Origin: an uncultured archaeon
Lineage (GTDB): Archaea > Altiarchaeota > Altiarchaeia > JAFGQM01
DNA length: 64,000 bases
Assembly: GCA_964592405.1 (NCBI GenBank)
Contig: CAZQBY010000001.1
Coordinates: 78,737-142,736 of the forward strand
Direction: 5' to 3'
In this document: piece after piece, positions 36,694 through 48,987 of the stretch
Numbering within the stretch: position 1 is the stretch's first letter
How the letters are laid out: each line of letters begins with the position of its first letter
The notes under the pieces: model-generated
The model's input: only the letters and a program-made list of their open reading frames with translations
Database searches by the model: none
Told to the model about the DNA's origin: nothing
Made by a program: the position numbers and the translations under genes

Positions 36694-37725
36694 ATGGAAG
36701 AAATCCGGCTTACATCATTCAGTTCTTATGGAGGATGTGGCGCCAAATTACCTGCAGAACACCTGGATGCCCTCCTGAGTGCAATTTGCGGAGGCAAAAC
36801 TGAGGGTTCTACCGGTTCTACCGGTCTGGAGACCCTAGACGACGCCGCAATTTACAAAATTGGAGGTATGACCCTCCTCCTGACTGCAGACTTCTTCACT
36901 CCGATAGTGGATGATCCATACACATTTGGCCAGATAGTCGCAGCGAATGCCATGAATGACATCTATGCCATGGGCGGAACTCCCCTGACAATTCTCAATC
37001 TCATGGAATTTCCGGCAGACCAGCTCAATGCCGAGATACTGACCAAAATTGTGAAAGGGGGACAAGACAAGGCTCTTGAAGCTGGCGCTAGGATAGTCGG
37101 CGGCCATACTCTGAGGGGCTCTGAGCTAAAGTATGGTATGGCAGTTCTGGGAAGCGTGGAATCCAAGGACCTCTGTAGGAACTGCACTGCCAGGGCCGGT
37201 GATAGGCTGATACTCACTAAACCACTTGGTGTTGGTATTATAGCTACTGCCATCAAACAGGGTCTTGCAAGCCAAAAGGCCATCAAAACAGCTTGCAGAT
37301 ACATGACACAGCTGAATGACAAGGCTTGCAGTATTATGAGGGAAACTGGTGTCAACGCCTGTACTGACATAACAGGGTTTGGTTTCATAGGTCATTCTCT
37401 AGAGATGGCCAGGGGCAGCAGTGTGGGCATGAAAATAGAGGTGGATGCAATACCTTATCTAAAAGAAGCGGCAGAACTCGCAGAAGAGATGAGAATAACC
37501 TGCCTCAACAGGGATTATTTCTCAAGGCATGTTGATTTATTAAAGAAACCATCAAAAATTATGTTGGATCTCCTCTACGATCCTCAAACATCTGGGGGAT
37601 TGCTAATTTCGGTCTCATCCAAAAAAGCAGATGTGCTCCTGAACAAGATGAGGGAACAAGGGGTGGAAGCAGAGCTCATAGGCAACGTCGTTGAATCTCC
37701 AAAAGGCAGGCTTGTATTGTTCTAG
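36694..37725 (+). CDS. selD: Selenide,water dikinase (Cys-type selenophosphate synthetase)
   Basis: RLT...GGCGAK, DDAA, DFFTPIVDDPY, GGH, LTKPLG, TDITGFG, DPQTSGGLL. Confidence 0.96.
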   Translation: MEEIRLTSFSSYGGCGAKLPAEHLDALLSAICGGKTEGSTGSTGLETLDDAAIYKIGGMTLLLTADFFTPIVDDPYTFGQIVAANAMNDIYAMGGTPLTILNLMEFPADQLNAEILTKIVKGGQDKALEAGARIVGGHTLRGSELKYGMAVLGSVESKDLCRNCTARAGDRLILTKPLGVGIIATAIKQGLASQKAIKTACRYMTQLNDKACSIMRETGVNACTDITGFGFIGHSLEMARGSSVGMKIEVDAIPYLKEAAELAEEMRITCLNRDYFSRHVDLLKKPSKIMLDLLYDPQTSGGLLISVSSKKADVLLNKMREQGVEAELIGNVVESPKGRLVLF

Positions 37726-37744
37726 GAGTTCAAATACCATAAAA

Positions 37745-38590
37745 ATGAGAAAACATTCCTCCTGGTTTTGTGTGGAGCTCAGAGACGTATACAGGGCGAT
37801 CGCAAAGGGCGAGGATATCCTGTGTGTTTTTCCTTCTGTATTGGCAGAGGAACTCTCAGGGGTAAAGAACATTGCTATAGCTGAGATATCTGGGAGAGAC
37901 AGTATCGCTGCTGCACTGAAATTTATAATGGACGGAGGTGGGGATGATATTCTACCAGTAGCTGATGACATACCGCCCCAGTATGGTGACTTCAATGAGG
38001 CCTTTAGCCCGGTTTTCTGGCTCAGAAAGAAGGCTGAGGAATATGGGGCAAGAGTGCATAGTCTTATTTTCATTAAGGAGCACGAGCTGTATAAGACCCT
38101 TGTAGCCAAATATATGAGGGAAGTAATTAGCCACTATGGGTTTTACACGCCCTGCATACCCTGCCATATGTATTTCCATACTATAAGAGCCCCTCTGGTG
38201 AAGGCACTGGGCGGGAGCAAGATAATCGGGGGTGAGAGGGATTCCCATGACGGCAGGATAAAACCAAGCCAGATACCCATGGCCATAGACTACTACAAGA
38301 AGGCGGTCAAGGAGCTTGGCAGCAGACTTGTCTTGCCACTGAGGCACATAGTCAATACAAAGGAGATAATATCATTTACCTATGAGGAGGATACTCAGCT
38401 TTCATGTATGTTCAAGGAGCTCCATGGAGATTTGTCCCAGAGCATAATGCAAAACACTGGGAAACTCAGAAGATTTCTTGAGGAGTTCGTTATGCCAATT
38501 AATCTAAAACTGATTAGGGCCCTGACTACTGATGAGAACGCTGATATACCAAAGCTGGCTAATGAATTTATGGATAATCTGGACAAATAG
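37745..38590 (+). CDS. Uncharacterised PP-loop (adenine-nucleotide alpha hydrolase-like) protein with CxxC
   Basis: IAIAEISGRDSIAAA (SGxDS-like), YTPCIPCHMYFH, IIGGER, LPL; starts 19 bp after selD. Confidence 0.7.
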   Translation: MRKHSSWFCVELRDVYRAIAKGEDILCVFPSVLAEELSGVKNIAIAEISGRDSIAAALKFIMDGGGDDILPVADDIPPQYGDFNEAFSPVFWLRKKAEEYGARVHSLIFIKEHELYKTLVAKYMREVISHYGFYTPCIPCHMYFHTIRAPLVKALGGSKIIGGERDSHDGRIKPSQIPMAIDYYKKAVKELGSRLVLPLRHIVNTKEIISFTYEEDTQLSCMFKELHGDLSQSIMQNTGKLRRFLEEFVMPINLKLIRALTTDENADIPKLANEFMDNLDK

Positions 38591-38692
38591 TCTTCTTCTG
38601 TGGACAGTTTCTGATATGAATTCAGGCAAAAATTCAGGCAAATATACCAATATACTCAATGAGCCAATATAAAATCGATATAAAACGCTAAT

Positions 38693-39985
38693 ATGAAAAA
38701 AATCCTGTTTGCGATCTTGGATGGCGCTGCTGATATTCCCTGCCCAGAGCTTGGAGGCAGGACTCCGCTTGAAGCTGCCAAAACCCCAAATATGGATGCA
38801 TTGGCCCAAAGCGGAGTTACGGGTATGATGTACCCGATAGCCAAGGGCTTTGCCCCCGAGTCCGATTCTGCGGCAATCAGTCTGCTTGGATATGATGTCC
38901 TGAATTCATACACCGGCAGGGGACCTCTGGAGGCCCTTGGAGCCGGTCTTAAGATACAGGAGGGCGATCTGGCTTTCAGGGTCAATTTTGCCACTATAAA
39001 TGACAATAATGTAATAGTTGACAGGCGTGTCTGCAGGGACCTCTCCAATGAGGAAGCCTCCCAGCTCGCAGATGCAATAAACACGGAGATCACTCTGACC
39101 AAATACCCATCAGAACTGCGTCTGAAAAATTTTCGTGGCTTCAGGGGCGTGCTACTGATCCACAGGCTCGATGGCGGGCAGTTCTCCGGCAATATCAGCA
39201 ATGTGGATCCCGGCTACATAAAAAGGGGGGCATTCAGCATAGGGAATCCCAAGATGGACCTGCATCTGAAGCCGTGTATACCTCTTGACAATACACAGGA
39301 GGCGGCAGAAGCCGCGGAGATCACCAATGAATTTATAGCCCGGTCGCGAGATGTGTTGGGGGAGCATCCGGTCAATTCAGCGCGCATTAGAAGGGGACAA
39401 CAAAAGGCCAACATCATCCTCACGCGGGATGCTGGCGACAGGCTCCCCAAATTTCAAAACATAAATGAGAGATATAATGCCAGGTTCGGCATGTTTGCGG
39501 AAATGCCATGTGAGGTGGGCATCGGCACCCTTATGGGCATGAAAATCATCGAGCACAAAAGCCGTAGTAGATCTCCAAAGGAAAACTACAGAAGACTTGC
39601 CCATCTGATTGCGGAAGAATTAAGGAAGCTGGATATCATTTATCTGCATCTCAAGGGACCGGATAATCCGGGGCATGACGGAGATGCTGAGGGAAAAAAA
39701 GAATCTATAGAGATGATAGACTGCTACTTTTTTGGAACCCTGCTACCGCTTCTGGAAAATACTTTGTTAGTTGTTACATCCGATCATGCTACACCATGCC
39801 ATCTCAGAACACACTCCTCGGATCCTGTTCCCCTCCTCATATCTGGGGGGGAGATATCTGGGGGAGAGATTACACGGGATAAAGTAGTATCATTTGGTGA
39901 GAGGGCCTGCCGGACCGGTTCTCTGGGCCTAATTAATGGGAGGAAACTGATGCCGATTTCTCTTCATCTAGCTGGGCAGTCCTAA
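38693..39985 (+). CDS. apgM: Cofactor-independent phosphoglycerate mutase family protein (archaeal ApgM type)
   Basis: LDGAAD, TPLEAAKTPNMD, ESDSA, GRGPLEA, KGPDNPGHDG, TSDHATP, HSSDPVP. Confidence 0.85.
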   Translation: MKKILFAILDGAADIPCPELGGRTPLEAAKTPNMDALAQSGVTGMMYPIAKGFAPESDSAAISLLGYDVLNSYTGRGPLEALGAGLKIQEGDLAFRVNFATINDNNVIVDRRVCRDLSNEEASQLADAINTEITLTKYPSELRLKNFRGFRGVLLIHRLDGGQFSGNISNVDPGYIKRGAFSIGNPKMDLHLKPCIPLDNTQEAAEAAEITNEFIARSRDVLGEHPVNSARIRRGQQKANIILTRDAGDRLPKFQNINERYNARFGMFAEMPCEVGIGTLMGMKIIEHKSRSRSPKENYRRLAHLIAEELRKLDIIYLHLKGPDNPGHDGDAEGKKESIEMIDCYFFGTLLPLLENTLLVVTSDHATPCHLRTHSSDPVPLLISGGEISGGEITRDKVVSFGERACRTGSLGLINGRKLMPISLHLAGQS

Positions 39986-40887
39986 GTCAGCTTCTCAAGA
40001 TAATGCTCAATTGGAGTTGCCCTTGATCTCAGCTCCTCAAATGCCTTTTCATATAGATCGCTTACTCTTTTTCCTATGACCCTTATACCGGAGATCTCCC
40101 CCATGAAAACAAGTATCAGGAGAACTTCCCTATCCGACACATAGGTATTAAATACTGATGAGGCTGTATCCAGTATGAAAAGTTTTACATTCTTGTGATT
40201 TTTTAGGTCCTCTAAGATCTCTCCTGCCCATTTTTTGACAGAGGCGTTCCCGTAGATCTCCCTGATTATCTTCACATAGGCATCTAGGGCTTCTTTGGTC
40301 ATTATCTGCTCGATGGGTTTCTCCATGTAGAAATCCATATACGCCCTATATTTTAAAAGCGATATCTCTTTGGAAGGTGTTGTTGCCGCGCGCCTCCTCT
40401 TGTTTATCACTTGGCGTATCTTCCAGAATTCCTCTTCATCCCTTGGCTGTATGAACCATGAAATTGAAAGTTCTCTGTGGATAGTCTTGAGCCATTCAGC
40501 CTTTGAGATAAGTCCTATCAGTTCATAATCATACCCCCGGTTGTCTGTAATAACCTCAACCCGCTCAATCTTCGTTTTCTCTTCAAGTAATGAGAGCAGC
40601 CGGCTCTGCTTTTCCATCTCCTTTTCAAATTTATACTGCAGAAAGTCCAGTATCCTGTCGTTGGGATTCCTCATGGAATAGACCGCGGGAACGCCATCCT
40701 CACGCTCTATCAGTTTCATTTCTATCAGCTCATTCAGAAGGTTGTAAATCCTGCCTTTGGGTATTGTCGTTCTAGCACATATTTCATCTGCAGTGCACGC
40801 CTCTGCTGACAAGAGCTTTAGTATGACCAAATGGTTCTTTTTGAGATAGAAACTGGTCTTGAGCTCCTTCAAAACTTCAGAAAACAT
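39982..40887 (-). CDS. TrmB-family transcriptional regulator
   Basis: TADEICARTTIPKGRIYNLLNELIEMKLI..GVPAVY HTH; C-terminal effector-type domain. Confidence 0.85.
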   Translation of the reverse strand: MFSEVLKELKTSFYLKKNHLVILKLLSAEACTADEICARTTIPKGRIYNLLNELIEMKLIEREDGVPAVYSMRNPNDRILDFLQYKFEKEMEKQSRLLSLLEEKTKIERVEVITDNRGYDYELIGLISKAEWLKTIHRELSISWFIQPRDEEEFWKIRQVINKRRRAATTPSKEISLLKYRAYMDFYMEKPIEQIMTKEALDAYVKIIREIYGNASVKKWAGEILEDLKNHKNVKLFILDTASSVFNTYVSDREVLLILVFMGEISGIRVIGKRVSDLYEKAFEELRSRATPIEHYLEKLT

Positions 40888-40941
40888 TTTGATGAGATAA
40901 GGGAGTTAACACCAAAATTATAACTCAAAAGAATATAAAGC

Positions 40942-41003
40942 TTTGTAGTATTAAAGTAAACCTTTTATAGTCTTATCTGATAACTATCAAAAATTACTAC
41001 AAA
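40942..41003. promoter_or_regulatory. 9-bp inverted repeat bracketing a TATA box
   Basis: TTTGTAGTA (40942-40950), CCTTTTATAG (40961-40970), TACTACAAA (40995-41003). Confidence 0.6.
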
Positions 41004-41032
41004 AAAACTTTTATTTGAGGTAGGGGGGTGCC

Positions 41033-41140
41033 ATGGTACTGACTTCAGCTATGTGTGAATATTTGCGTAAAAAGGAATTGGAAGATAGCGCTAATATAAG
41101 GGGATTTCATATAAATAACTCAAATAAAATATTTATTTAA
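41033..41140 (+). CDS. 35-aa micropeptide A
   Basis: MVLTSAMCEYLRKKELEDSANIRGFHINNSNKIFI*; preceded by a TATA box and GAGGTAGGGGGGTG; paralogous to 41228..41338. Confidence 0.65.
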   Translation: MVLTSAMCEYLRKKELEDSANIRGFHINNSNKIFI

Positions 41141-41227
41141 GTTATATCATCTAAAGTTATGATCCGGGTTATAGGTTATAAATAGAATTAATAGAATTAA
41201 AGAGTTAAAGGGGCAGGAACAGGAAAG

Positions 41228-41338
41228 ATGGTATACACCCCCTCCATGGTGGCTTGGCTTAGAAGAAAGGGCCTGTGGCAGACAATAAGAGCGAAGAGAG
41301 CTAAAGTCAGAGCAAAAGCACGGCCCCGGGTGAGATAG
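41228..41338 (+). CDS. 36-aa basic micropeptide B
   Basis: MVYTPSMVAWLRRKGLWQTIRAKRAKVRAKARPRVR*; purine-rich upstream sequence; shares its N-terminal motif with peptide A. Confidence 0.7.
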   Translation: MVYTPSMVAWLRRKGLWQTIRAKRAKVRAKARPRVR

Positions 41339-41350
41339 TTTTATCCCCCA

Positions 41351-42337
41351 TCATCCCTCCCGCTTTTTATATCTTGAATAAATGGTCTCAACTCTCTTTC
41401 TCAGCTTACCAGTTATCTTATCAGCCTCCTCCTTATCTATTCTTACAGCCCTACTGCATTCAGCCTCAAACAGTCCCTTGAACCTATTTGCCAGTTCCGG
41501 CGAATTTATATAAACAGCTCCGACACCCATGCTTTTCTCATCTCGGACCATCAGGAAGAACTCATTCATATCTTCATTATGCGGTATTATCATGTCGAGA
41601 CCATAGGGAGAGGGGCTGTAGAACAGCTTCAGCTTTTCATTATTGGTTATGAAGTCTGCCAAGCCATTAAGGACCATATTAATCTCATCATAAGCATATC
41701 TTGGATTCTTATAGGCTCTCGCCAGCCTCCTAAAGAGGTATTCGATGTCAAAGTGTGTCAGATAGTTGACTTCTAGTTCCTTCTTCATAATACATCTCTC
41801 CCAAAGGGTCTGCACATACAGCCGGGCGCCCGGAATCTGCATCAGGGATGGTGATTGGGCGTAGAGAATCCGGGGAAATATGCCAGTAACATAACATATC
41901 TTTGCGGTTTTCAGGAGTCCAGCAGTTTTGTAATACATATCATCATAATCAAAAAACATGACAGCAGGCTCCTTTCTCTTGACTGAGAGCCGCCCGAAGA
42001 ACTCCATAACCCCGCCCCTAATCTCATCAAGCTCATATATCTCAGTGTCGAGAAAGTTTCTGGCTTCATCCAGAGCCTTCTTTATTGCGTTGAAATCTAT
42101 CTCATAAGATGCTTCATCAGTCTTCTTGACAAATCCCCGCTCGCGCAGATTCTTGAGTTGGGCAAAGAAATTTGATTTTTGTATTCTCCTGGACTGATGC
42201 AGTTCTGCATCCCTATCTATAATTGCCTTCGGACTAGCCTGTTTTCCCTCCTTCTGTAAACTGACTATGGCTTCAATTATATGAAACTGTTGCTTGGTGA
42301 TCCCCAACCACCTTGGGAGCTTTTCAAGTTCGTTCAT
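41351..42337 (-). CDS. Divergent TrmB-like wHTH regulator
   Basis: LGIT...KSNFFAQLKNLRERGFV wHTH, coiled linker, and C-terminal INSPELANRFKGLFE resembling TrmB effector domains. Confidence 0.7.
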   Translation of the reverse strand: MNELEKLPRWLGITKQQFHIIEAIVSLQKEGKQASPKAIIDRDAELHQSRRIQKSNFFAQLKNLRERGFVKKTDEASYEIDFNAIKKALDEARNFLDTEIYELDEIRGGVMEFFGRLSVKRKEPAVMFFDYDDMYYKTAGLLKTAKICYVTGIFPRILYAQSPSLMQIPGARLYVQTLWERCIMKKELEVNYLTHFDIEYLFRRLARAYKNPRYAYDEINMVLNGLADFITNNEKLKLFYSPSPYGLDMIIPHNEDMNEFFLMVRDEKSMGVGAVYINSPELANRFKGLFEAECSRAVRIDKEEADKITGKLRKRVETIYSRYKKREG

Positions 42338-42416
42338 CTCAAAAGAAATCCAAAGAAATCATCCAAAATAAAAGGTGTTTATAGTTTATACCGTGATCAT
42401 ATAAAAGGGTGATAAA

Positions 42417-42505
42417 AGGGTATACCCTATAGTATAGTAGTAATCTACTACACACTTATGGATATATAAAGCATAAAATAGCTCTCCACGTGCATCTTTT
42501 ATATA
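42417..42505. promoter_or_regulatory. Divergent promoter with palindromes
   Basis: AGGGTATACCCT (42417-42428), GTAGTA-ATC-TACTAC (42437-42451), TTTTATATA (42497-42505). Confidence 0.6.
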
Positions 42506-42525
42506 GCTGGGGATACTAATCTATT

Positions 42526-42726
42526 GAGGCGTGGAGTAGGGTCGAAACACGCCTCTTATTTACAGCCGCCGGATACTCCTGTGGGTGTTGGTGGCTTAAC
42601 AATGGGATCATGGGATCTGAATGGGCGTCATGACCCCATGTGTGGTTGCCAGTGCTTGCGATAACCCGGAGCCAACTGGCAACCACACCGGAAATATCCT
42701 GATGTTACATTTGCACTCCCGGCTGT
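42526..42726 (+). ncRNA. Putative structured ncRNA with four consecutive hairpins, family unknown
   Basis: Stems at 42526-42555, 42564-42596, 42602-42639 and 42640-42688; begins ~21 nt after a TATA box; G-U pairs favour the + strand. Confidence 0.6.
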
Positions 42727-42757
42727 CTGTGTCTTCCAGTTCTAGGGTATGCTTTAT

Positions 42758-42793
42758 CTATGTGCCGGACATAGACTATGTGCCGAACATAGA
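42758..42793. repeat. 18-bp tandem duplication of the platform gene 3' end
   Basis: CTATGTGCCGGACATAGA / CTATGTGCCGAACATAGA (one mismatch); each copy is self-complementary. Confidence 0.85.
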
Positions 42794-44920
42794 ACCAAAG
42801 AAAAAGGCCATTCCGGTCTTCATCAGAATGAACATGCCCAAAGTAGCTGGTACCAACAAGGGAGCGAGTTTCAGTCCAGCGCTTTGTTTACCCTTCCTTA
42901 TGAGACCTATGAGCAGTGAGCCGAAGAATCCTACACTGAACAGGGAGATCATAGCAAAGATTTCCAGATACTCCGGCTTTATGCAGGAGGGAGGTAAGGG
43001 AGGAGCACCTCTTTCATACTGTTCCAGATAAGTTATGCCAAGCTCAGGGTTGATGTTTTGTGCATCGGTGCTGTTCTTTGGATTCAATCCATGCTCCCTT
43101 TCCCATGTATCTGCTATACCATCGCGGTCAAAATCCTTGGGGCATCCGCCCCCGCCAAGCGAGAGCATATCAAAACCCTGCATACCGCCCATCATAGGTC
43201 CAGCTCCTGCGGATGAGATGTCGATATCCATCTCCTCAGGCTGGAATCTGTTCATAATATCAACAAACTGAATAGAAACTGAGAAGAGCAGTGGCGCTCC
43301 AAGAACCATGCCAAAGAGAATGAATAGTATATAGGACATGGTGTTTGCGGCCATCTCTTTTTGTAAGAGCCTCATCTGTCTTATATCATTGCCAATACCC
43401 TGCAGAATCTGTGGCAGTTCGCCACCAGCTTTCATACCCTGAATAAGAAGGCGTATGGTTCTCTGGAGGACATTGGATCTCACCCGGTTCCCCATATCTG
43501 TCAGGGCATCTGCGAAGGATTTGCCTCCCAAAGTTTCCTTCTGCGCTATTTTTATCTCCTCTGCAAGGGCTCCAAACTCCTTTCTGGCGGAGACCCAGAG
43601 GGCATTATAGGGTGTCATACCAGCTGATATGTTGGCACTGACTATCTGAAGAACGTCGGGTAAGGCATTCTCAACTTCATCTGTACGCTTATCTGCCATC
43701 ATATTGATAACCGAATATATGATCACCCAGACTATGCCAAAGGAAAAAATTGCTGCAATAACCACAAGTAACAGATCCCAGTTCAAAAGAAAAAAGCCGA
43801 TTGTAGATACTAGAGCCGCCAGAACCACTCCATTGACTATTGTGATACCGGTTATCTCAATCTGTGTCTTCTCAATACCGCTGTAGATGATGAGCATGTT
43901 TATCTTTTTCTTCCAGCCAAATGGTGAGAACCTCCCAACCCTCCTGTATATGCCCTGCAGGAAGCCGGAGACTCCCTTTGCCACGAGCTTGCCTAGGTTT
44001 ATTGGGATAGAGAGAATGGTCGTAAAGAACACAAATACACTGTGGGACATCCTACCAAACATGCCTCTAATCCCTCTGCTGACTGCCCTGAACGGGCTGC
44101 TGATGGTCCTTCTTCTCTTCTCCCGCCTCTCCAGTTTTTTCTGGGCTTCAGCCTCCTCAATAATTCTTTGTTCCTCTAAAATCTCCTGAATTCTCTTGGC
44201 TCTCTCGGAGATATAAGGACTTATGGTTTTGGGACCAGCAAGCCCAACCTTCTCCTCTTTGGATACCATGCCTGCTTTGGATCCCCTCTTATCAACTATC
44301 CTGAATGTAGGCTCCTTTTTGGCGGCTTTTGCCTTATTGATTTTATAAATCTCCGTAAGAGGGAGATCCTTTCCGCCAACAGTTCCGCCGGCAGGAGCAA
44401 TAGCCTGGTCTTTATCCTCTTCTGCATGTTTCTCTTCTCCATGTTTTCCCTCCCAGCCTGTTCTGCTTGGAGTTTTCCCTTCCGGTTTTTTGCTCTCCTC
44501 TGCTTTCTTAGCTACTACTCTGGCCTCTTTTTTGACTTTTTTCTCCTTTTTCTCGGATTTCCACCTATCCAGAACCCTGCTCAGTGCCTTGTCAATATCC
44601 TTGAGTCTTGAATAGGCCAGCAGTGTGCCCCTTTTTAGAGCTTCTTCCTCACTCACACCAAGCCTCTTCATGATGTCCTTCCTGAGTTTCTTCTCCGGAC
44701 TGCCAAATAATCCCTTTTTTGTCTGCAATAGGGCTGAAAGAAGCTCCTCTGTTTTGAGAGCCGCAATCCCGGGTCTGAGTGGAACCAAAACCTCCTTCTT
44801 GCCAGTCCTCTTCACTTTTGCTCCATCTCCAGACGGTGCGGCTTTGCTTCTGCGTTCTTCCTCTATTATCTCATCCAGGGATTTTATATCCATCTTCCCA
44901 CTGCCACCTACTGGGCTCAC
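42776..44920 (-). CDS. Type IV pilus platform protein (TadC/PilC/T2SS-F) with long N-terminal extension
   Basis: VENALPDVLQIVSANISAGMTP...FGALAEEI T2SSF motif; multiple TMs; DxDxDG-type insert. Confidence 0.9.
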   Translation of the reverse strand: MSPVGGSGKMDIKSLDEIIEEERRSKAAPSGDGAKVKRTGKKEVLVPLRPGIAALKTEELLSALLQTKKGLFGSPEKKLRKDIMKRLGVSEEEALKRGTLLAYSRLKDIDKALSRVLDRWKSEKKEKKVKKEARVVAKKAEESKKPEGKTPSRTGWEGKHGEEKHAEEDKDQAIAPAGGTVGGKDLPLTEIYKINKAKAAKKEPTFRIVDKRGSKAGMVSKEEKVGLAGPKTISPYISERAKRIQEILEEQRIIEEAEAQKKLERREKRRRTISSPFRAVSRGIRGMFGRMSHSVFVFFTTILSIPINLGKLVAKGVSGFLQGIYRRVGRFSPFGWKKKINMLIIYSGIEKTQIEITGITIVNGVVLAALVSTIGFFLLNWDLLLVVIAAIFSFGIVWVIIYSVINMMADKRTDEVENALPDVLQIVSANISAGMTPYNALWVSARKEFGALAEEIKIAQKETLGGKSFADALTDMGNRVRSNVLQRTIRLLIQGMKAGGELPQILQGIGNDIRQMRLLQKEMAANTMSYILFILFGMVLGAPLLFSVSIQFVDIMNRFQPEEMDIDISSAGAGPMMGGMQGFDMLSLGGGGCPKDFDRDGIADTWEREHGLNPKNSTDAQNINPELGITYLEQYERGAPPLPPSCIKPEYLEIFAMISLFSVGFFGSLLIGLIRKGKQSAGLKLAPLLVPATLGMFILMKTGMAFFFGSMFGT

Positions 44921-44962: not shown

Positions 44963-46474
44963 CTATCTGAAATTATAGTATATAGGCCCTGTATCTTCTG
45001 TTTCCCTAAGCTCGTCCTCTACCGCATCAAACTTCGGCCCCTTCGTGATAATCGTGCCACCTATGATGGAGTATTGGGATTTCACAAGTCCGGCATCCTC
45101 CAACATCTTTACCCAGCCTTCCAAAAGCTTTTTGTCGACTCCAAGCTCTTTGACGGCATTGCCTATGCTTATCTTCTCTCTATGGTCAAGAATCTCCAGT
45201 AACCGGTCTATTTCTGTGAGCACCTCCCGCCCTGTGCCAATTATCTCCTCCTCGGGTATCTCCCCTTCCTCAGGGCTTTTTTGCACCGCTTTTGCCGTTT
45301 CTTCCCTTCCAACTTCCTCTTTAACCCCCGTCCCCTCCTTGGTCTTCTCTTTCGCCTCCTCCGGGATTTGCCCCTCCACCCCAAGTTCCTCTTTAACGGC
45401 TTCTCTGGCCTTTTTAAGTAATCTATCTCCAGCCTCTTCTTTTTCCACTTCTTCCCTGAGGGCCTCCCGGATGCTCTTTAGGGGCTTTCTTGTCCAACCC
45501 TTTTCAACCTCTGCCTGTTCCTTCTCACTCACTATAAGTGTGGCTGAAACCAGTTTGCCACTTCCTTCGAGCTTCATTATCCTGACACCCTGAACATTAC
45601 GCCCCATCTCAGGTATTTCACCTGCCGCCATCCTTAAGACACGACCTGTAGATGTTGTAAACATAACCTCATCATCTCCACGAACAGCCCTTGCAGCTAC
45701 TACTAAACCATTACGCTCATTAGTCTTTATGTCTTTGACTCCAAGTCCACCACGTCTCTGAAGGGGATACTTGTCAAATGATGTGCGTTTACCGTAACCA
45801 TTTTCAGTTGCAGTGAGGAGTGTAGCACCCTTGGCCACCACAGTAGCACCAATCACACTACTTCCTTTCTTGAGTCTGATTGCCCTAACCCCCATGGTCC
45901 CTCTCCCTGTTGGTGATACCTCCTCCTCGCTGAATTTTATTGCATAACCATCACTGGTCGAGACCAGTATCTCATCTTTACCTGTAGTCAATAGAACCCT
46001 TACGAGATCATCATACTCTCCCAGTTTTATTGCTATAATGCCTCCCCGTCTTGGATGACTATACTCACTCAGATTGGTCTTCTTTATCATACCCTCCTTA
46101 GTCACCATGGTGAGATAATAATCCTTCCTAAATTCGCTTATCCTCATAGCTGAGGTTATCTCCTCCAGCTTCTTCAATTCTAGGAGTTTTGTGATAGGTT
46201 TACTGCGCCCCTTGGCAGGTATCCTGCCAACCTCCAACCAATGCACCCTCCCCCTGTCTGTGAAGAACAACATCAGGTCCTTGGTTGAAGCCACAAATAT
46301 TCTCGCTAGGAAGTCACCCTTTCTCGTCCTCAGGCCCTTCACACCCTTACCACCCCTTCGCTGGGCACGATATTTGTCGAGTGACAATCTCTTCATATAA
46401 CCCTGATTAGTGACAGAAACTATAACGGCCGGTCCCCTCTTTCCTCCCTCCTCATTCCTTTTCAAGCGTATCAT
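44963..46474 (-). CDS. Stand-alone GyrA C-terminal beta-pinwheel fused to a charged linker and wHTH domain
   Basis: Six GyrA-CTD blades including the GyrA-box QRRGGKG; no breakage-reunion domain; AGGAGG RBS. Confidence 0.88.
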   Translation of the reverse strand: MIRLKRNEEGGKRGPAVIVSVTNQGYMKRLSLDKYRAQRRGGKGVKGLRTRKGDFLARIFVASTKDLMLFFTDRGRVHWLEVGRIPAKGRSKPITKLLELKKLEEITSAMRISEFRKDYYLTMVTKEGMIKKTNLSEYSHPRRGGIIAIKLGEYDDLVRVLLTTGKDEILVSTSDGYAIKFSEEEVSPTGRGTMGVRAIRLKKGSSVIGATVVAKGATLLTATENGYGKRTSFDKYPLQRRGGLGVKDIKTNERNGLVVAARAVRGDDEVMFTTSTGRVLRMAAGEIPEMGRNVQGVRIMKLEGSGKLVSATLIVSEKEQAEVEKGWTRKPLKSIREALREEVEKEEAGDRLLKKAREAVKEELGVEGQIPEEAKEKTKEGTGVKEEVGREETAKAVQKSPEEGEIPEEEIIGTGREVLTEIDRLLEILDHREKISIGNAVKELGVDKKLLEGWVKMLEDAGLVKSQYSIIGGTIITKGPKFDAVEDELRETEDTGPIYYNFR

Positions 46475-46486
46475 TTTGATCCTCCT

Positions 46487-47362
46487 TTAGACTATGGGCC
46501 TCTTGTTCTTTATTATACCTACAAGCATGAACTGAAAGAAAAACATGAACACCACTATCCCTCCAAAAACCAGATTTTTGTCTATGGCACCAAAAATGTC
46601 GACAAGTGTTGAGAGTATAATAAGGAGGGTTATGCCCTGCGAGGGAAGGACAATCACCATAAGCATGTACATCAGGGACCAAAGATTCATCTCCTGACCA
46701 TATGCTTTGATTTTTGTCTCCTTGTCGCGTGTCAGATCATTGCTGATGGCCTTCAGGGCAATGCTTACATCTGAGCCGGTGTACATACTGTTCACTATCT
46801 GCCATATTATCCTCCTCAGGAAGGGTGAAGATGTGTGCATACCCACTTCATCTAGGGCCCGGATAACTGACTCGCCGCTTTCTACCTTCTTGATAACCTC
46901 GCCGAACTCTTCTGAGCATTCCCCATAGCCGCCGTTGGCCACATGCACCAGAGCATCAAAGATTGGTATTCCGGCACTTGTCTGTATTTCAAGATCCTTA
47001 AGCGCATAGCCCAAGTTCTTCTCTATCATGGCAGATCTCTTTCTTATCTTGACCTTTGGCATCAGGAGCATGTAGATGAGCATAAATATGCTGAGGCCCA
47101 CTGAGGCACCTATGGCCATCGGCAGGCCAATATCTAGTTTGTTTACAAGATAAGCAGGGAGGGCTATGCCAACAAATGTTGCCAATCCCACGGACAAAGC
47201 CATATATATGACAATGGAAATATAAGTCAGGGGGGTAACATGTATGCCTGCCCTCTCAAGATCCCACTCAAGCCCCGGTGTAATCCTCTCAAGCTTCTGG
47301 GCTAACCCTATAAACGGCTTTGATGTGTTTATAAGTCTTTGGGATTCAAAGGCTGAGGGCAT
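46487..47362 (-). CDS. Type IV pilus platform protein (TadB/ArlJ-like, T2SS-F)
   Basis: IEKNLGYALKDL...SAGIP...YGECSEEF; TMs; directly follows the ATPase. Confidence 0.9.
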   Translation of the reverse strand: MPSAFESQRLINTSKPFIGLAQKLERITPGLEWDLERAGIHVTPLTYISIVIYMALSVGLATFVGIALPAYLVNKLDIGLPMAIGASVGLSIFMLIYMLLMPKVKIRKRSAMIEKNLGYALKDLEIQTSAGIPIFDALVHVANGGYGECSEEFGEVIKKVESGESVIRALDEVGMHTSSPFLRRIIWQIVNSMYTGSDVSIALKAISNDLTRDKETKIKAYGQEMNLWSLMYMLMVIVLPSQGITLLIILSTLVDIFGAIDKNLVFGGIVVFMFFFQFMLVGIIKNKRPIV

Positions 47363-47445: not shown

Positions 47446-48987
47446 TTATCTCTTCAGCCCTTCAAGTTCTGCCTTTCCGGCCATCAGTTGCTCATACGTG
47501 CTACCTGCTCCAATCTCCTGCATAACCCTTTCCCTATCCATGTAATACTCTGAAACTACCCTCCCAACAGAGTCAACATCCCTTACCCCGTTGTCCAGCA
47601 TCCAATTCAGTACAGACATCTTGTCTTTGAGATTCTTTCTTATCTCGGCCTCCGTATAGCCTGTGTGCATTTCTATCTCATCTATAAGCCTCCTGCTCTT
47701 ATTAACGGGTTTGATTGAATCCGTCTTGGCATCCCACCGGTAGAGGATGTTTATCTCTGGCTCCTCACCTTCAGTGGTGAGCACCTCAGCCAACTCAAAT
47801 GTCCGTCTGGCACCGGTTCTTCTGTTTCTGTACTGAACAACTATAAGATGGAGCGATTCCATAACGGTCTTTGGCACATCCATGGGTGGGTTGGTTAGCC
47901 TCTTAACCACTTGATAAGCCCTTTCTGCGTGGAATGTACCATACACTGAATGACCCGTATGCATAGCCTCAAAGAGGACCTCAGCCTCCCGCTTCCTTCT
48001 AACTTCACCTACCACTATCCGGTCTGGCCTCATTCGCAGGGAGTTCTCCATCAGGTCCAGCATCCCCACCTCTCCCTCACCGCGCGGATTTGGCGGTCGT
48101 GTATTCAATGGAACCCAATGGAGGAAAGAGGGCAGGTTCAGCTCTCGGGTATCCTCAATTGTCACGACTCTGTGATTCGGCGGGATGAATGGCATAAGTG
48201 CGTTCAGCAGTGTTGTCTTACCGGATGCAGTCCCACCAGCTACAAGCATAGACAATTCATACTCCATGGCAAGCCAGAGCAGAGCTGCCACATCCACCTG
48301 CACAGTCTTGATCTTGGGGTCTATTAGGTGTATGATGGTCCACGGTATTCTGCTAAACCGCCGTATTGTTATTGTGTTTCCTGCCGTAGATATCGGGAAA
48401 AGGGTGGCATTGACTCGGTCTCCGGTGGTCAGGTGGGCGTCCAGCAGTGGCTCAGCGGAGGTTATCTCTCGGCTCACCAGCCGGGCAACCCTCGATGCCA
48501 GATTTTGTATAGCCTCTTCTGTCCCCATGCTAATATTGGATTTAAGCCAGCCGTACTTCTTGCTGTAGACCCAGACGGGTTCTCTGGCACTGTTGACAAC
48601 TATCTCTTCAAGGCTATCATCAGCCAGAAAGAGCTCCAAGTCGCCAAGCCCTATCATCTCATTCACTATCCGGGTTGAAAGCATTTCCTTTATTTCTTGC
48701 TTCATGTTGGGCAGTTCCTTGCCGAGTGCATTCTCTGCATCCTTTCTGAACTTCTCCTTGAGTTCCAAAAACAGTCTTGGGTCTAATATCTCTCGGGCTT
48801 CTATCTCCATATCGGCAACAAGTCTGGATTTCACATCATTCATTACAACCCGTGTAGTTGTACTTACCTCTGGCACCTTCGCATTGTAGTGAAGAACATA
48901 GTCGCCCACATCAGCAATTTCCACAAGTACGGGTATCTTCCCAGCCTTCAGGTTGTATTGCTCTTTGATTTTGGTTTCCCCAGCCAT
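47446..48987 (-). CDS. Type IV pilus assembly ATPase (CpaF/VirB11 family)
   Basis: [39 protein letters not shown]. Confidence 0.95.

Follow-up and report, generated by a model that had tools for sequence, protein, structure and literature searches.

A family of putative micropeptides encoded beside TrmB-like regulators in uncultured vent archaea of an Altiarchaeota-like lineage

Results

A tandem pair of small open reading frames

Two small open reading frames (sORFs) lying in tandem in the genome of an uncultured archaeon assigned to the Altiarchaeota are the subject of this report. They are located in a stretch of 64,000 nt, positions 78,737 to 142,736 of contig CAZQBY010000001.1 (assembly GCA_964592405.1; G000:C1:78737-142736 in our numbering), which is called the window and to which coordinates without a prefix refer. 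The metagenome-assembled genome (MAG) containing it, G000, consists of 1.13 Mb in 22 contigs and is 87 % complete. sORF1 (41033-41140, + strand) encodes 35 amino acids (aa) and occupies what we call the a-type position, and sORF2 (41228-41338, + strand), the b-type, encodes 36 aa; both exist exactly as an earlier sequence-only reading of this DNA had placed them. The pair occupies a 463-nt gap bounded by two minus-strand genes (39982-40887 and 41351-42337), and the stop codon of sORF2 is 12 nt from that of the convergent gene, which encodes a regulator of 328 aa. The two peptides are identical at positions 1, 2, 4, 7, 11, 12, 14 and 16, i.e. at eight of the first 16 residues as that reading had counted. 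Comparison with related genomes shows that both ORFs encode proteins and belong to a micropeptide family restricted to one lineage.

To what extent the similarity within the pair could be due to chance was assessed with the 5,788 sORFs of 25-80 aa in the same genome. Of 2,000,000 random pairs drawn from this pool, 78 reached at least eight identities in the first 16 residues, and among the 4,637 pairs of same-strand neighbours within 400 nt, sORF1/sORF2 was the sole pair with eight. Since about 0.18 such pairs are expected genome-wide, the similarity of the pair is on its own only suggestive; it is the conservation in relatives which makes the pair more than chance. Three other neighbouring sORF pairs in G000 have N-termini identical at 16/16 positions (C9 at about 10960/11239, C6 at about 221/466 and C18 at about 3757/4001), and their spacing of about 245-280 nt points to local DNA repeats.

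Putative expression signals precede both sORFs. A G-rich block resembling a Shine-Dalgarno (SD) sequence lies 3-16 nt upstream of the sORF1 start (41017-41030, + strand), and a purine-rich SD-like stretch lies directly before sORF2 (41207-41227, + strand), in agreement with the ribosome-binding-site-like sequences reported for both frames in the earlier reading. The TATA-like box which that reading placed before sORF1 is found as an A/T-rich element at 41008-41016 (+ strand), with a second one at 40961-40970; both are matches to the consensus only. A further TATA-like box, weaker than the canonical octamers of other family members, lies 45-52 nt upstream of sORF2 (41176-41183, + strand), and sORF2 may thus have a promoter of its own. 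An A/T-rich palindrome (41115-41145; 14-nt arms with 93 % complementarity and a 3-nt loop) spans the stop codon of sORF1 and resembles, at 75 %, the sequence at 40991-41022 upstream of the same sORF. The tail of sORF1 is encoded by A/T-rich DNA that also forms the palindrome, and both this and the upstream resemblance are consistent with the sORF1 tail being of little importance.

Family members and their distribution

Scoring of the regulator loci of related genomes with sORF1 and sORF2 as queries identified ORFs sharing this N-terminus next to the homologue of the 328-aa regulator in G002 (two, in tandem), G001 and G007. A degenerate DNA pattern was then written from these four and the window pair and applied to 61 genomes of the phylum, eight belonging to the family of the window organism (f1) and 53 to eight other families. 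The pattern had 12 matches in f1, distributed over seven of the eight genomes, and no matches in the 53 genomes of the other families, whereas a reversed control pattern gave none in f1 and four in the other 53. A hidden Markov model (HMM) of the first 14 residues separated the members (26.4-30.8 bits; 30.8 for sORF1 and 30.1 for sORF2) from the best other six-frame fragment of the 1.13-Mb genome (10.9 bits), and when all six frames of G000 were searched with a relaxed peptide expression, sORF1 and sORF2 were the only matches. With this expression a b copy that has diverged was also recognized in G001. Two further members, L046 and L047, came from metagenome contigs searched with a stricter pattern, which had no matches in viral contigs; another metagenome match to it, L045, lies inside a gene of 65 % G+C and was rejected as chance. 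Together with one database protein the family thus has 16 members of 16-50 aa: 12 from the pattern, the diverged copy, two from metagenomes and one from the database. The earlier reading had named absence of these frames from related genomes as the finding that would speak against it, and in fact they are conserved there. Its view of the two peptides as paralogues with a conserved N-terminus and variable tails is likewise supported.

The family is essentially unannotated, as had been supposed for the window pair, and gene callers miss it. Neither Pfam nor NCBIfam contains a family matching either peptide. A protein database search for near relatives, in which a 40-aa member was placed first, gave one match among seven candidates, namely sORF1 itself (P0001), and a search for longer proteins gave one match among 6,199 candidates, a G007 member called with a 56-residue N-terminal extension. 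In a library of 1.84 billion representatives four matches were obtained. Three correspond to members of the family, two of them with longer, apparently mis-called starts: P0001, P0002 (the G007 member as an 89-aa protein) and P0004 (a 70-aa call which contains another member). The fourth, P0003, is a repeat artefact. The 89-aa public gene call P0002 occurs on 15 contigs; the member concerned, G007:C64 (L030 1333-1602), has no SD-like block and its frame is open upstream to an ATG. With sORF2 as the query, the ESM Atlas gave unnamed clusters with a best score of 0.84 and nothing informative. The titles and abstract openings searched in the literature contained none on small proteins of Altiarchaeota or on sORFs paired with TrmB, and supplementary small-protein lists, e.g. 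that of PMC11456600, could hold look-alikes. The DNA runs containing the region are labelled as hydrothermal-vent or marine metagenomes, and no RNA run was among those listed for it. As far as sequence data allow us to say, the family has so far been found only in one family of uncultured vent archaea of an Altiarchaeota-like lineage. We regard it as a new family within a known kind, the archaeal sORF-encoded small proteins.

Evidence for coding

Conservation is seen at the level of protein rather than DNA. In the 14 distinct members found by pattern, the codons of the fixed residues Val2, Thr4, Tyr10 and Leu11 have third-position entropies of 1.3-1.8 bits and are as free as unconstrained sites, and the codon for Leu11 alternates between TTG and CTN. 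The search pattern forces part of the invariance; the first four relatives came from protein scoring instead, and positions not forced by the pattern are conserved as well (the second base of codon 3 is T in 12/14, the second base of codon 6 is C in 13/14 and the first base of codon 9 is G in 13/14). Between the orthologous a copies of G001 and G002, three of the four differing sites in codons 1-14 are synonymous. The strains in four DNA runs are near-identical, and the single difference that they show within the pair, 41239 C>T in sORF2, is synonymous as well (ACC>ACT at Thr4, seen at a depth of 4.4 in one contig of run X3).

All 16 members have an ATG start and an open frame of at least 16 codons, and at the mapped loci every copy sits in a gap between long ORFs. 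On visual reading of the upstream sequences, G/purine-rich SD-like blocks precede most members, and four (G002 a, G001 a, G003:C75 and G007:C45) have a canonical TATA-like octamer at a distance of 28-47 nt upstream. RNAalifold found no consensus pairs from -40 to +60 in 15 members, and an Rfam scan of 38000-44000 at E≤1 gave no matches. We consider the sORFs to be coding because of the synonymous codon variation, the SD-like blocks in most copies and the lack of consensus RNA structure.

N-terminal module and tails

The defining feature of the family is an N-terminal module, M-V-x-T-x-x-M-x-x-Y/W-L-x-R/K, and conservation is confined to residues 1-13. Met1, Val2 (Ala once), a hydrophobic residue at 3, Thr4, a small residue at 6, Met7 (Gln once), Tyr10 (Trp once, in sORF2), Leu11 and Arg/Lys13 are conserved, and an alignment of the tails contained no conserved column after position 13. 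The tails extend 3-39 residues beyond the motif and vary in both length and sequence. By hand count, with no control computed, they have a net positive charge in 16/16 members, from +2 in sORF1 to +17. In sORF2 the motif is followed by a polybasic tail with a net charge of +12 over residues 12-36, and throughout the window's genus (three genomes) b-type tails have this polybasic character without conservation of sequence. An AlphaFold2 (AF2) model of sORF2, built on a 12-row alignment, has residues 1-4 extended and helices at 5-14 and 17-31, with a mean predicted local distance difference test (pLDDT) value of 82.8.

The printed sequences of the members contain no hydrophobic segment, and Cys is absent from most of them. 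Archaeal type IV pilins or Flp-like pilins were considered and rejected, as the members lack the hydrophobic segment of about 20 residues that follows a class III signal peptide in such proteins, and their tails are basic. Small membrane proteins of the type I toxin kind, which have a transmembrane helix and an overlapping antisense RNA, were rejected for the lack of any hydrophobic stretch.

Genomic address

The commonest address is the border of a type-IV-pilus-like gene cluster, where ten of the 16 members lie (two each in G000, G001 and G002, and G007:C64, G003:C75, L047 and G006:C82), and the family accompanies this cluster in four genera or lineages. Four are dispersed (G002:C2, G003:C23, G005:C2 and G007:C45), and two, L046 (1,028 nt) and P0004 (protein only), have no genomic context. 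The cluster-linked sORFs are always on the strand opposite to the cluster, and at six loci the sORF is divergent from a regulator of TrmB/TrmBL2 fold with 145-325 nt between the starts. In G007, G003 and L047 the sORF lies between a T2SSF gene and the regulator, from which it diverges with 272, 204 and 325 nt, respectively, between the starts.

In the window's genus an a+b pair follows the 328-aa-type regulator and is divergent from a second regulator. The latter is a paralogue of the first in G002 (238 nt between starts) and G001 (about 245 nt); G000 has in its place an unrelated TrmB gene at 145 nt. In each of the three genomes, 5-15 nt separate the end of the b ORF from the stop codon of the convergent regulator, and the b ORF starts 2 nt (G001, the diverged copy) or 1 nt (G002) after the stop codon of the a ORF. 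The tandem pair predates the split of the three genomes of the genus. The dispersed copies are located 70-460 nt upstream of same-strand genes which are unrelated to each other (FKBP, HD, Zn-ribbon and FeoB).

Flanking regulators and the pilus-like cluster

Both genes flanking the pair are predicted to encode TrmB-type regulators, which are not detectably related by sequence, as the 301-aa protein matches Pfam TrmB and the 328-aa protein matches TrmBL2 and TrmB in Foldseek. The divergent TrmB regulator described in the sequence-only reading is thus confirmed, and the other flank is TrmB-like as well. The 301-aa protein (39982-40887, - strand) is a winged helix-turn-helix (wHTH) regulator of the TrmB family (Pfam TrmB 1.5e-8), oriented divergently to sORF1 with the two starts 145 nt apart. 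A homologue was found in one of the 40 relatives searched, and the match was weak (E 4.6e-4, 30 % identity). G000 seems to have undergone a replacement at this position, because G001 and G002 have there a paralogue of the 328-aa regulator and a radical-SAM gene. The radical-SAM genes are L035 5386-6456 (+ strand, G002) and G001:C33:865-1923, and in translation their C-terminal part reads as Cys-rich. The segment 39982-41200, containing the 301-aa gene and an A/T-rich spacer, has a G+C content of 41 % compared to 49 % for the genome.

The 328-aa protein (41351-42337, - strand) is the conserved neighbour of the sORFs. It has no match in Pfam or NCBIfam, and its homologues were found in 24 of the 40 relatives. 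Its AF2 model (pLDDT 88.8) has as top Foldseek matches TrmBL2 (5bpd, E 2.3e-10) and TrmB (3qph, E 7.7e-6), followed for the C-domain by proteins of the phospholipase D (PLD) fold. The wHTH, the long dimerisation helix and the PLD-like C-domain that characterize the TrmB family structurally are thus present in the model, and sequence models do not recognize them. The matches extend over the wHTH, long helix and C-domain, and the low TM-scores (0.3) against TrmBL2 and TrmB are due to domain placement. In hhalign the 328-aa family and the 301-aa TrmB protein gave a weak match restricted to the wHTH region (probability 1.4 %). A contig scan with the single 328-aa protein found nothing, and rescanning with an alignment gave 10 loci. 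No analogous sORF was found alongside the homologues of the 328-aa regulator in other families. In another family of the phylum these homologues are accompanied by a conserved gene for a 52-53-aa AbrB/MazE-like protein (L014 991-1146, L018 2895-3050, L019 2812-2967 and L020 773-931; Pfam MazE_antitoxin 4.6e-6 for the L014 copy).

The 328-aa gene closes the type-IV-pilus-like cluster, of which the last gene before it encodes a T2SSF/TadC-like membrane protein (42776-44920, - strand). The cluster also includes a T2SSF-like gene (46487-47362) and a FlaI-like ATPase (47446-48987). Between the two T2SSF-like genes there is a 503-aa ORF (44963-46474, - strand) made up solely of the C-terminal beta-pinwheel of GyrA (Pfam DNA_gyraseA_C 5.2e-68; corresponding to residues 497-796 of GyrA models); no such domain was found in the long T2SSF proteins of L047 and G006. 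On the other side of the sORFs lie selD (36694-37725) and a 299-aa ORF (37691-38590, + strand), which overlaps the end of selD by 35 nt. The earlier reading had taken this ORF for a PP-loop enzyme; it has no Pfam or NCBIfam match at the thresholds used. ARAGORN found no tRNA gene across the whole 64-kb window.

Discussion

The reading that we favour, to which we give a little less than an even chance, is that the sORFs encode free micropeptides which have an N-terminal docking helix and a polybasic tail and which act in trans. According to this proposal the peptides would be released, and residues 1-4 together with an amphipathic helix of about 10 residues would dock onto a partner restricted to this family of archaea. 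The hydrophobic face of the helix would be formed by positions 3, 7, 10 and 11, with Thr4 as the N-cap, and the polybasic tail would add non-specific affinity for nucleic acid or for an acidic surface. Each sORF gene would be under its own promoter, and at the cluster-linked loci this promoter would lie in a control region used jointly with the TrmB-like regulator gene in divergent orientation. The peptide would thus be controlled by that regulator, modulate it, or both. Because the divergent arrangement recurs, the TrmB-like regulators come first as candidates for the controller of the peptides, their partner or both. The four dispersed copies, which precede unrelated genes, indicate an autonomy that is in favour of action in trans. 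A complex predicted for sORF2 with the 328-aa regulator had a score of 0.10 (mark 0.32; one prediction), a result which speaks neither for nor against binding. We know of no TrmB-type regulator that pairs with a micropeptide.

Several observations weigh against action as a free peptide. The tails differ in length, and those of G001 a and G002 a seem from visual reading to be offset by a frameshift of 1 nt, a pattern which a function of the nascent peptide fits at least as well. With 16 aa, the shortest member could form hardly more than a single helix as a free peptide. The family is not tightly tied to any one regulator, since the divergent regulator of G000 is from a branch of TrmB other than that of G001 and G002, and G005 carries the regulator without a linked sORF. 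Finally, the genomes are all incomplete MAGs (63-87 % complete) of related organisms, and the member counts are therefore not independent.

The strongest of the competing explanations, unlikely in our estimate yet deserving real weight, is that the sORFs act in cis, with the first 11-13 residues being conserved as the nascent chain within the ribosome tunnel, where they would cause a stall or serve as a sensor. The stall would set the extent of translation-coupled transcription into whatever follows, i.e. the downstream gene of the dispersed copies, the second sORF of the tandem pairs, or, at the cluster, the convergent regulator or T2SSF gene, which would be read in antisense. In bacterial leader peptides that sense drugs or metabolites, conservation is restricted to the portion occupying the tunnel when the ribosome stalls, and here it is likewise limited to the N-terminal codons and the SD sequence, whereas the tails range from 3 to 39 residues in length and undergo shifts of frame. 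A same-strand gene is downstream of all four dispersed copies and a-type copies are followed by b. The start of b 2 nt or 1 nt after the stop of the a ORF in G001 and G002 suggests coupling, and as b ends 5-15 nt from the regulator stop, read-through would be antisense to the regulator. On the other hand, there is no same-strand gene downstream of the last sORF at the seven cluster-linked loci (10 copies), and the genes following the dispersed copies are unrelated. Their spacers of 70-460 nt have no conserved sequence or structure, and with no pairs from RNAalifold a conserved RNA switch is not indicated. Basic tails, moreover, are kept in 16/16 members, and the titles and abstract openings searched contained no archaeal arrest peptide that could serve as a precedent. 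In a more ambitious version of these two readings, which we think rather improbable, the module would be either the first archaeal nascent-peptide sensor or arrest leader, or else a micropeptide cofactor which, by inserting into TrmB/TrmBL2-type regulators, would set the expression of a type-IV-pilus-like adhesion locus in Altiarchaeota.

The layout of a conserved leader and a variable core also recalls precursors of ribosomally synthesized and post-translationally modified peptides (RiPPs) or of secreted signals, in which the N-terminus would be recognized by a maturase and the tail would be the core. The sequence-only reading had proposed this with SelD and the PP-loop protein as possible maturases, a proposal which comparison does not support: neither SelD nor the 299-aa ORF is beside the sORFs at the other mapped loci, where the neighbours are PurC, T2SSF and the regulator instead. 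A radical-SAM protein follows the paralogous regulator beside the sORF pair in G002 and G001 (Pfam Radical_SAM 7.6e-15), but the gene occurs in three of the eight genomes of the family, one match being weak, and was not found in the sORF-bearing G000, G003, G005, G006 and G007. With no protease or exporter gene conserved nearby, a putative leader of 11-13 residues, no cleavage motif, tails that in some members extend just 3-8 residues past the motif, no recurrent Cys/Ser/Thr pattern in the tails and most members lacking Cys, a precursor role is improbable. We consider it even less probable that the peptides are cationic amphipathic effectors, toxin-like or antimicrobial, whose targets would be the membranes or nucleic acids of competitors or those of the producing cell. 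The hand-counted net positive charge of all 16 members and the predicted helical structure would suit such a role; there is, however, no signal peptide or hydrophobic segment, no gene for immunity, an antitoxin or export is linked, basicity is lowest in the conserved part, and the stricter pattern had no match in viral contigs. Equally slight is the probability that the ORFs are incidental and that the bases are conserved because they form a DNA operator or RNA element. The copies do lie in control regions next to regulators, and the pattern used for searching contributes to the conservation, but conservation follows a strict 3-nt period in which third positions are free, and the first base of Leu codons switches synonymously, as in coding sequence. 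The finding of the first four relatives by protein scoring, the ATG with at least 16 open codons in every member, the SD-like blocks upstream and the lack of an RNA consensus structure or Rfam match also speak against a non-coding element.

Comparable systems can be found among the small proteins of archaea. In Methanosarcina mazei, sP26 (23 aa) enhances glutamine synthetase, and MtrR is another small protein of this organism (bioRxiv 10.1101/2020.05.06.080432; PMC13370731; PMC11456600). According to these papers they are, like the present family, archaeal sORF products of a few dozen residues that long remained unannotated. They act by binding a larger protein, and their partners and expression have been shown experimentally, whereas the present family is known from sequence alone. 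There is no sequence relation, and the present family differs in being multi-copy with a conserved N-terminal module and free tails. Haloferax volcanii has C(P)XCG zinc-finger micro-proteins of less than 70 aa, some of which are reported to be linked to biofilm formation and swarming (PMC10716476; PMC6562870). These are surface and motility traits, and the present family adjoins a pilus-like cluster. Unlike the zinc-finger proteins, its members are basic and predicted to be helical and have no Cys motif, and metal binding is therefore not expected.

Two other kinds of small ORF share features with the family. Bacterial leader and arrest peptides include the Erm leaders, the cat/cml leaders, TnaC and SpeFL. 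Like the sORFs, they are encoded by very short ORFs with strong ribosome-binding sites and have a short conserved peptide stretch, the rest being free. They are, however, always located upstream of the regulated gene on the same strand and have a defined RNA switch, whereas 10/16 sORFs face the 3' end of a convergent gene. RiPP precursors share with the sORFs the conserved N-terminus, the hypervariable C-terminus and the tandem paralogues, but the sORFs are without a conserved maturase, protease or exporter neighbour and without a recurrent modifiable residue.

Of all that archaeal genomes encode, small proteins are the least well annotated, and in uncultured phyla such as the Altiarchaeota none is known to have been described. 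The reach of the present finding is narrow, covering one family of vent archaea and eight related MAGs. Within it, we present a case, made from sequence only, of a micropeptide family with constraint at the protein level, paralogues, and a recurrent address beside the TrmB-like regulators of a pilus-like locus. The defined 12-residue module can be synthesized and used as bait, and the family provides a test bed for the use of nascent-peptide leaders by archaea. Should the module prove to be either an archaeal nascent-peptide sensor or a cofactor of TrmB-type regulators, a 12-residue peptide element would have been recruited repeatedly, both in tandem and at dispersed loci, as a regulatory part.

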